Assembly (NCBI GenBank): GCA_050302075.1
Contig: JBNLAH010000003.1
Coordinates: forward strand, 207,378-271,377
Length of the DNA stretch: 64,000 nt
Direction: 5' to 3'
From: Parachlamydiales bacterium
GTDB taxonomy: Bacteria > Chlamydiota > Chlamydiia > Chlamydiales > SM23-39
Shown: positions 12,688 to 12,878 of the stretch, piece by piece
Numbering within the stretch: position 1 is the first letter of the stretch
How the letters are laid out: the number at the start of each line of letters is the position of its first letter
Program-made: the position numbers and the translations under genes
Notes under the pieces: generated by a model
Databases searched by the model: none
The model's input: the letters and a program-made list of their open reading frames with translations, nothing else
What the model was told of the DNA's origin: nothing

Positions 12688-12878
12688 ATTTTCTTATTTC
12701 TTTTATTTTCCTTTTCTATTCTTGTGGATTTGTTGATAAGATAAGGGGAACTCTTAGGAGAATTTACTGTTCATAACCTGTTTAAGAAATGAATAAAAAA
12801 CGCAACTTATCAACAAAGCAAAAGATATCAACAAAACCATCAACAAAAAAAGGAACACTTTTGAAACAGTTTTCCACA
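12688..12878. other. Candidate replication origin: DnaA-box cluster beside an AT/pyrimidine tract
   Basis: Seven DnaA-box-like 9-mers at 12723, 12731 and 12768 (reverse) and 12807, 12825, 12837 and 12870 (forward); apparent switch in strand bias nearby. Confidence 0.6.

Follow-up and report, generated by a model that had tools for sequence, protein, structure and literature searches.

The question raised by this locus is whether the chromosome of an uncultured environmental chlamydia starts its replication in a short gap that carries two inward-facing sets of DnaA boxes and lies far from any dnaA gene. The gap is located within a 64,000-nucleotide stretch of DNA (the window, positions 207378-271377 of contig C3) from a genome of 1.84 Mb, assembled in 89 contigs and 96.2% complete. 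The first-pass annotation had proposed an origin here, and this proposal is supported by the strand skew, by the uniqueness of the element within this single genome and by its conservation across the phylum. From these three lines of evidence we predict the gap between the glmU-like and the rlmD-like genes to be the chromosomal oriC, and consider this very likely. The predicted origin and the genes next to it are as follows.

12650..12878, no strand assigned: predicted oriC, comprising the gap between the glmU-like and rlmD-like genes and the first codons of the latter (skew minimum; sole strong profile match)
11100..11981, minus strand: ispA-like polyprenyl synthase gene, which accompanies glmU in relatives
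11978..12649, minus strand: glmU-like hexapeptide acetyltransferase gene, which commonly borders the unwinding side
12861..13961, plus strand: rlmD/rumA-like RNA methyltransferase gene, from its open reading frame and the alignment of relatives

The closest named matches of the glmU-like protein were found in Chlamydiae and Parachlamydiales metagenome bins (50-55% identity), and both ispA and recA are located near the gap in the window. As annotated before, no dnaA is nearby; two dnaA genes sit on contigs C1 and C2. The position near hemB given for the chlamydial origin in the first-pass annotation holds only loosely, because hemB lies on the same contig C3 but about 23 kb to the left and not adjacent. 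The longest open reading frame of the rlmD-like gene begins at ATG 12789, but relatives align with it only from residue 11-32, and the true start is likely TTG 12861, with AAGGA at 12850-12854 ahead of it. With this likely start, the box at 12870 would probably fall on codons 4-6, in agreement with the earlier placement of the last box inside the methyltransferase gene. The likely TTG start overlaps a weak box within 12860-12878, so that the N-terminus and the DnaA boxes share sequence, and in several relatives (L019, L024, L027 and L033) the rlmD start codon lies inside the last TTATGAACA box.

Some other features of the neighborhood were noted. The only structured RNA found between 11 and 19 kb of the window is a tRNA-Pro, which is located together with a conserved 106-aa hypothetical gene and ung at 15758-16991, 3-4 kb to the right of the origin. 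Since these three genes directly abut the box cluster in many relatives, the segment 12861-15460 may be a later insertion; at 13973-15460 (minus strand) is an orphan of 495 aa that is rich in lysine, contains an internal repeat and matches no family. A ParA/MinD-like ATPase gene followed by a UPF0137 protein gene (21429-22958, about 9 kb from the origin) is a possible partition module. The segments 60120-63530 and 5056-6237 (both plus strand) cover two leucine-rich-repeat proteins, with below-cut-off matches to type III effector families, and one Legionella-type outer-membrane protein with a cysteine-rich N-terminus.

Along contig C3 the raw cumulative G-C skew decreases over 220 kb until it reaches about -5580 and increases from there on; its bottom is flat between 12.5 and 16.6 kb of the window, and the keto minimum lies at 13526. 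Among the large contigs, a deep minimum is seen in C3 only, and a clear maximum in C4. We then corrected the codon skew for gene orientation, using leading- and lagging-strand codon frequencies trained on 955 genes from five other contigs. The minimum falls directly after glmU (third codon positions) or after rlmD (all positions), and the boundaries within 5 log units, with overdispersion ignored, cover 11.1-14.0 kb. Of the 178 genes left of the boundary, 146 have a codon skew that fits their side, as do 31 of the 36 on its right, and a right-replichore appearance is shown by 0 of 11 genes at 0-12.7 kb against 13 of 16 at 12.7-30 kb. The skew polarity that had been seen by eye, and a minimum close to 12.8 kb, are thus borne out. 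An uncorrected change-point at fourfold-degenerate sites, 40-65 kb to the left, vanished once the coding-strand bias was modelled, and was replaced because it was confounded by this bias. In sequence slices of relatives, the distance from the skew minimum to the element described below was 1.3 kb (G032), 0.4 kb (G041) and 17 kb (G015); in the closed genome G052 the keto minimum is about 0.2 kb from it and the G-C minimum 26 kb off. To the left of hemB, at about -32 to -17 kb relative to the window, the genes on C3 show a weakly right-replichore codon skew, suggesting a recent inversion across the origin.

All seven 9-mers reported before were confirmed (12723, 12731 and 12768 on the minus strand; 12807, 12825, 12837 and 12870 on the plus strand), and two weaker boxes that had been overlooked, at 12779-12787 and 12860-12868, were added. 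The boxes are listed below with their class (C6 or A6, the base at box position 6), the distance from the proximal box and, where available, the number of matches at similar distances among 52 modules.

12723..12731, minus strand: proximal tandem box AAATCCACA, C6 class, sharing one base with the next box
12731..12739, minus strand: distal tandem box TTATCAACA, A6 class, at the position of B. subtilis box 6
12768..12776, minus strand: box TTATGAACA at +45 (35 matches at +40 to +49)
12779..12787, minus strand: degenerate box TCTTAAACA at +56, 11 bp past the previous one (9 matches at +55 to +59)
12807..12815, plus strand: box TTATCAACA at +84 (20 matches at +80 to +84)
12825..12833, plus strand: box ATATCAACA at +102 (28 matches at +100 to +104)
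12837..12845, plus strand: weak box CCATCAACA at +114, 12 bp past the previous one (15 matches at +110 to +114)
12860..12868, plus strand: degenerate box TTTGAAACA, in overlap with the likely TTG start
12870..12878, plus strand: terminal box TTTTCCACA, C6 class, within the methyltransferase gene

The last 8 bases of the proximal box are identical with B. subtilis box 7, and the terminal box recurs in relatives (L022 and L028) where the methyltransferase gene is missing at this position. As a measure of clustering, no other place in the 1.84-Mb genome has as many ATCMACA motifs within 200 bp as the five found here (3 at the runner-up; 0.0007 such clusters expected), the motif having been picked after the site was seen. 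With TTATCMACA and at most one mismatch, 5 sites were counted here against 4 elsewhere (0.06 expected). With the a-priori E. coli box TTATCCACA and at most one mismatch, the count was 3 here against 2, which is not significant (0.64 expected). A perfect TTWTNCACA occurs once here and twice in each of four other places in the genome, and searches allowing two mismatches place other windows above this site. The genome-wide box density thus agrees with the origin reading as far as lineage-type boxes are concerned, for which the cluster is the densest and unique, while for the E. coli box alone neither density nor uniqueness is significant; the box count by itself would not settle the origin question. 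A pair of TTATCAACA boxes on contig C8, considered as a rival site, fell outside the top 15 profile matches.

The same intergenic region was then compared among relatives. A glmU-like gene was identified in 53 of 61 genomes, and of 30 loci compared, this one included, 27 align without gaps when anchored solely on the two tandem boxes (L018, L023 and L031 offered no anchor and were left out). The order of elements, hereafter the module, is an AT-rich core, a phased T/C repeat, a triplet, four free bases, TGTGG plus three bases, and TGTYBATAA. T is found at -17, -14, -11 and -8 in 26, 27, 26 and 27 of the 27 loci, and C at -16, -13 and -10 in 21, 22 and 20; the first triplet is NAG in 15. With one mismatch allowed, 280 of the 401 Chlamydiota genomes searched have a match to the module pattern, and the reversed pattern, used as a control, has about 26 by hand count; the relatives are not independent, and some of the 401 were also a source of training loci. 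As the outgroup we took the phylum to which a Verrucomicrobia-labelled locus belongs, where the pattern was found in 6 of 251 genomes and the control in 3. The comparison with relatives that had been proposed earlier thus turned out in favor of the origin. Within this genome (G000) the pattern has a single match. With a profile built from 54 modules of other genomes (one of 55 was left out for want of TGT[G/T]G), this site scored 31.6 bits, the next 14.3 bits and the training median 48.3 bits, indicating that this copy is the only one in the genome, and worn.

Six genes were tested as neighbors of 30 pattern-derived loci: glmU is the neighbor in 23, hemB in 3, rlmD alone in 1 and none of the six in 3. 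After removal of L175 and L176 as chance matches, 52 modules were used for the analyses of box position and melting. A mirror box that faces the bubble from the left at a distance of 50-56 nt is present in 34 of these 52 modules; the neighboring interval 57-63 gave 12, and six further intervals of 7 nt gave 0-1 each. At 50-56 nt no such box was found in our window, nor in 18 of the 52 modules. Several modules also carry a mirrored AAG run. The view that f28, a Chlamydia-like family, is without the module (5 of 30) was discarded, as the offset between the f28 boxes is 9 nt, and 11 of 16 f28 genomes tried have a match once the pattern is gapped. This gapped pattern matched 11 of 13 genomes of genus g78, with 31 of 52 chosen genomes still unmatched. 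In those 11 genomes of g78, a genus (genomes of 1.0-1.2 Mb) that we infer to be Chlamydia-like, the module is mirrored, has the 9-nt box offset and lies directly upstream of hemB.

Chlamydial oriC sequences were predicted earlier in DoriC/Ori-Finder (PMC4009838, PMC2275245; rows in the PMC8287927 supplement). The site described here is like them in lying far from both dnaA genes and in its box motifs TTTTCCACA, TTATCAACA and TTTTCAACA/TTWTCAACA, but unlike them ('adjacent to hemB', PMC4009838) in abutting glmU, with hemB 23 kb off and no cluster upstream of it. The two positions are reconciled when taken as two sites of one element, of which this genome keeps the glmU copy only; a second copy was sought at hemB, but the match there had 5.7 bits and lay inside the hemB coding start. 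In family f27 (L242-L248, L258-L261) one module is located upstream of glmU and another upstream of hemB in the same orientation. All seven same-contig pairs consist of one glmU and one hemB module about 9-13 kb apart; in two further genomes the two are on separate contigs, and ten other genomes carry extra copies elsewhere, the multi-copy genomes being hand-picked among the 150 pattern matches listed. The double modules of f27 are candidate dual origins, proposed from their sequences. They resemble the predicted dual oriC of Halomonadaceae (bioRxiv 10.1101/2025.08.05.668638) in having two origin-like units per chromosome, but differ in phylum and module, and the present genome has a single copy. 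Tandem modules about 260-275 bp apart were observed in L005, L014 and L179-L181, where the terminal CCACA box of the first cluster is the mirror box of the second. Within the DoriC-related rows and passages compared, there was no CTT repeat, mirror box, pair of box classes or glmU-plus-hemB double copy; the predicted chlamydial trios in the PMC8287927 supplement vary by strain, and none of the 30 rows compared corresponds to this module. Chlamydiae do not appear in the available parts of PMC6323995 and PMC10225481.

Two readings that deny an origin at this site were weighed against these data. That the boxes are a chance cluster of AT-rich 9-mers could draw on the non-significant clustering of the canonical box alone (0.64 expected) and on the windows that outrank the site in two-mismatch searches, but it is refuted by the phylum-wide module and box positions and by the coincidence with the skew switch, and its probability is vanishingly small. 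It is also very improbable that the cluster is regulatory, serving datA/DARS-like titration or control of the divergent promoters of glmU and rlmD, with replication starting elsewhere nearby. Many chlamydial genomes carry two or three full copies within 16 kb, not all of which need fire, the raw skew cannot resolve a few kb, and the assembly, in 89 contigs, is 96.2% complete, all of which leaves room for such a role. Yet the copy in this genome is single, its hemB gap is without a cluster, the corrected skew switch falls at this very gap, and the gene flanking the boxes varies among relatives (rlmD, tRNA, ung and others). In addition, neither a promoter nor a terminator was found at the origin region, and specifically no sigma-70-like promoter.

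For the predicted oriC, the next question is where the duplex would open. The purine-poor, AT-rich tract pointed out before is indeed present, and is the predicted unwinding element.

12688..12722, plus strand: T-rich pyrimidine tract (T25 C6 A4, zero G), predicted unwinding element, from the sequence and the alignment of relatives

Purine-poor 35-mers are common in this genome (115), and the unusual part of the tract, overlooked in the first pass, is its conserved three-base repeat. The tract keeps the phased T of the chlamydial CTT repeat at 12706, 12709, 12712 and 12715 (-17, -14, -11 and -8), with the 4-nt spacer at 12719-12722 and TTATT at 12694 and 12703. The segment 12680-12719 is within the least stable 4.4% of the 40-mers of the genome, and the 5' end of glmU is less stable still: the least stable 30-mer of this copy lies there, outside the tract. 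In all 52 modules of relatives the least stable 30-mer begins 32-55 nt to the left of the boxes, and melting energy backs the site less well here than in relatives. The sequence WATCARNNNNTTR, which we take to be the IHF consensus, is absent from 12600-12950, including the interval between the first boxes. The GAA/TTC run is presumably too short here for triplex DNA, and a triplex reading was dropped. According to PMC13643167, HU could stand in for IHF.

The module was compared with origins of known architecture. The B. subtilis row of PMC8287927, read from 3' to 5', has a box of 9 bases followed by the 8-base box TTAGGTGT, and then GAT trios after a gap of 4 bases. Like the B. subtilis BUS (PMC8287927, PMC10721633), the module has two boxes in the same direction offset by 8 nt, an identical 8-base proximal box, a 4-nt spacer and a three-base repeat 5' of the TGTGG strand, the first triplet often being NAG. 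It differs in that the repeat is 3'-TTC and not 3'-GAT, that the distal box is different at position 6 only (A), and that a mirror box accompanies 34 of the 52 relatives' modules. One or two boxes beside the unwinding site (at most two and at most four mismatches, respectively), as used in the box test for BUS, are found. The trio rule of the BUS specifies at least three NAN within 16 nt of the box (PMC8287927); on the TGTGG strand no such run was found here, and it was found in 1 of 27 loci (4 with a looser spacer), the runs of at least three in 26 of the 27 being NTN. As judged by sequence, the element is apparently BUS-like in geometry and a non-member by the trio test. Like E. coli oriC (PMC13643167, PMC5742627), it has a first box with a T-rich strand at its side and about 28 bp of gap behind it, two inward-facing box arrays with 11-12 bp spacing and, in this copy, TTATT twice; unlike it, the relatives have TTCTT and not TT[A/G]T, there are two DnaA paralogues, and the IHF consensus as we assumed it is absent. 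Boxes on both sides, as in the bilateral oriC of the Thermoanaerobacter tengcongensis type (PMC13643167), are present in most chlamydial relatives, but this copy has no left box, and on the left of relatives there is one box or a tandem pair plus the mirrored AAG run, without a second cluster.

The suggested lineage preference for A at box position 6 is real, with A6 in 155 of 221 inner boxes, but gives half the picture, because the box next to the unwinding tract has C6 in 49 of 52 modules. The inner boxes hold strictly to TTAT and vary at position 5, where 71 of 221 have C, 75 have G and 67 have A; C at position 6 is found in 24 of 221. The proximal box is loose at positions 2-3 with C6 in the same 49, and the left mirror box has C6 in 27 of 34; two of the positions, 5 in the proximal and 6 in the distal box, were set by the search pattern itself. 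In our window C6 is found in the outermost box on either side, and A6 in the five inner boxes. The A6 preference is not new, since, in the 30 of 52 chlamydial places compared, DoriC already uses TTATCAACA or TTTTCAACA as the standard box for Parachlamydia, Simkania and several Chlamydia rows.

At least two DnaA domain IV matches were found in all 29 genomes scored (G065 was unscored, and the tallies are floors). For 32 aligned DnaA proteins, 20 DnaA1 and 12 DnaA2, the register was checked on PDB 1J1V and 8BTG, the E. coli numbering of 1J1V being inferred. Asp433 reads a DnaA-box position, and all 20 DnaA1 have Thr in its place (D433T), with Arg399 and the sensor-2 Arg kept. In contrast, all 12 DnaA2 have R399Q and no sensor-2 Arg, while Asp433-His434 is kept; the arginine finger is kept in both. 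DnaA2 (988-2304 of L002 and 11 orthologues) also retains Walker A and the HTH core. According to PMC5742627, Arg399 reads the 5' TTA of the box and helix 434-451 its 3' part, E. coli R399A is defective in box binding, and Arg334 is needed for ATP hydrolysis. From the defect of R399A, DnaA2 may not bind boxes at all, and it could be a regulator or scaffold instead of a box reader. The C6 and A6 classes, taken together with the reciprocal losses of the paralogues, suggest a division of labor in which each paralogue would read one class. The specific assignment, DnaA1 to the inner TTAT(C/G/A)(A/G)ACA boxes and DnaA2 to the outer boxes with loose 5' end and strict CCACA, is put forward tentatively.

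In the mechanism that we propose, DnaA oligomers would form on the inner boxes, spaced by 11-12 bp, and on the tandem pair, the inner boxes seeding cooperativity as in E. coli. From the tandem pair, DnaA would extend along the T-rich strand with three bases per subunit, gripping CTT repeats instead of TAG trios, so that the duplex opens leftwards; helicase loading would come after opening. We lean, with modest confidence, towards the T-rich strand as the captured strand: the repeat is fixed to the near box, while the far box varies within 50-56 nt or, as here, is missing, favoring loading from the near boxes, and E. coli DnaA captures the T-rich strand too, according to PMC13643167.

With the origin at the same place, the other strand may be the one that is read, an alternative that is possible though doubtful. 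The genuine trios would then be on the purine strand, as 3'-AAG or 3'-GAA whose middle A is invariant, and reversed relative to the near boxes; they would be engaged through looping, by a filament that arrives from the mirror box on the far side, or by a paralogue in a different orientation. The NTN runs of at least three on the T-rich strand are NAN runs on the opposite strand in 26 of 27 loci, and a purine, an invariant A and a variable third base fit the trio rule (PMC8287927). The pocket residues for G/A capture in B. subtilis are largely retained (E183, N187 and E228 in DnaA1, with R202K and T225F; R202 and E228 in DnaA2, with N187 mostly E or D), and what is retained would fit purine capture better than pyrimidine capture; the mirror box at 50-56 nt in 34 of 52 modules would supply the loading site. 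Against this, the repeat registers with the near box and not with the far one, which this genome and 18 of 52 modules lack at that distance, and the polarity would be opposite to that of the solved B. subtilis complex. We regard it as unlikely that the CTT tract serves passively in melting or bending, or that another chlamydial protein binds it as duplex. The tract does fail the trio rule, and the annotated T. maritima trio beside the box only assists melting (PMC10316083), but the strict three-base phase with near-invariant T agrees with one DnaA protomer per three nucleotides, and the easiest-melting part lies further to the left in the alternating AT core. Extension along the T-rich strand from the near boxes is thus kept as the working mechanism.

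The exact chlamydial-type module, with an AT core and 2-6 further boxes, was also observed in 13 viral contigs of IMG/VR (L262-L274; longer loci, L275-L288), in most of them near position 1500. By DNA similarity the contigs fall into about 5 groups, and the neighbors include genes for large terminase, P22-like portal, tail and RusA, for none of which a homologue was found in the present genome. One of the portals has a 64% identical relative on a phage-like contig of the chlamydial bin G283, on which no convincing module was found, and a relative occurs in 5 of 401 chlamydial genomes. The module-bearing contigs are likely tailed phages of chlamydiae that would mimic the host origin; the best 15 of 344 matches in our literature search included no report on tailed phages of chlamydiae. 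In the literature covered, which includes few subscription journals, we found no experimentally mapped chlamydial origin and no roles assigned to DnaA1 and DnaA2.

A more speculative combination of these elements, which we rate as rather unlikely in its entirety, would be a two-DnaA orisome on a mirror-symmetric origin. DnaA2, blind to the box 5' end and without normal ATP hydrolysis, would mark the CCACA boxes flanking the bubble, DnaA1 would fill the A6 arrays, and the filament would read CTT/AAG by a non-TAG code. The module would be portable (at glmU, at hemB or at both), and tailed phages would carry a full copy in order to use the host initiators.

An oriC of this kind was already predicted for cultured chlamydiae, and the anatomy of the module is new within the literature searched. 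The window is one ordinary, somewhat worn member, and the value lies in the family: a phylum-wide module of about 35 bp points to the expected place of duplex opening and to the bases worth mutating. The trio rule was proposed as broadly conserved; the module makes a phylum-wide exception to it, and a variant opening rule is predicted for chlamydiae. The module may also help to assign tailed phages to chlamydial hosts, and if the box classes match the paralogues, the question of why chlamydiae have two dnaA genes would become a simple binding experiment.
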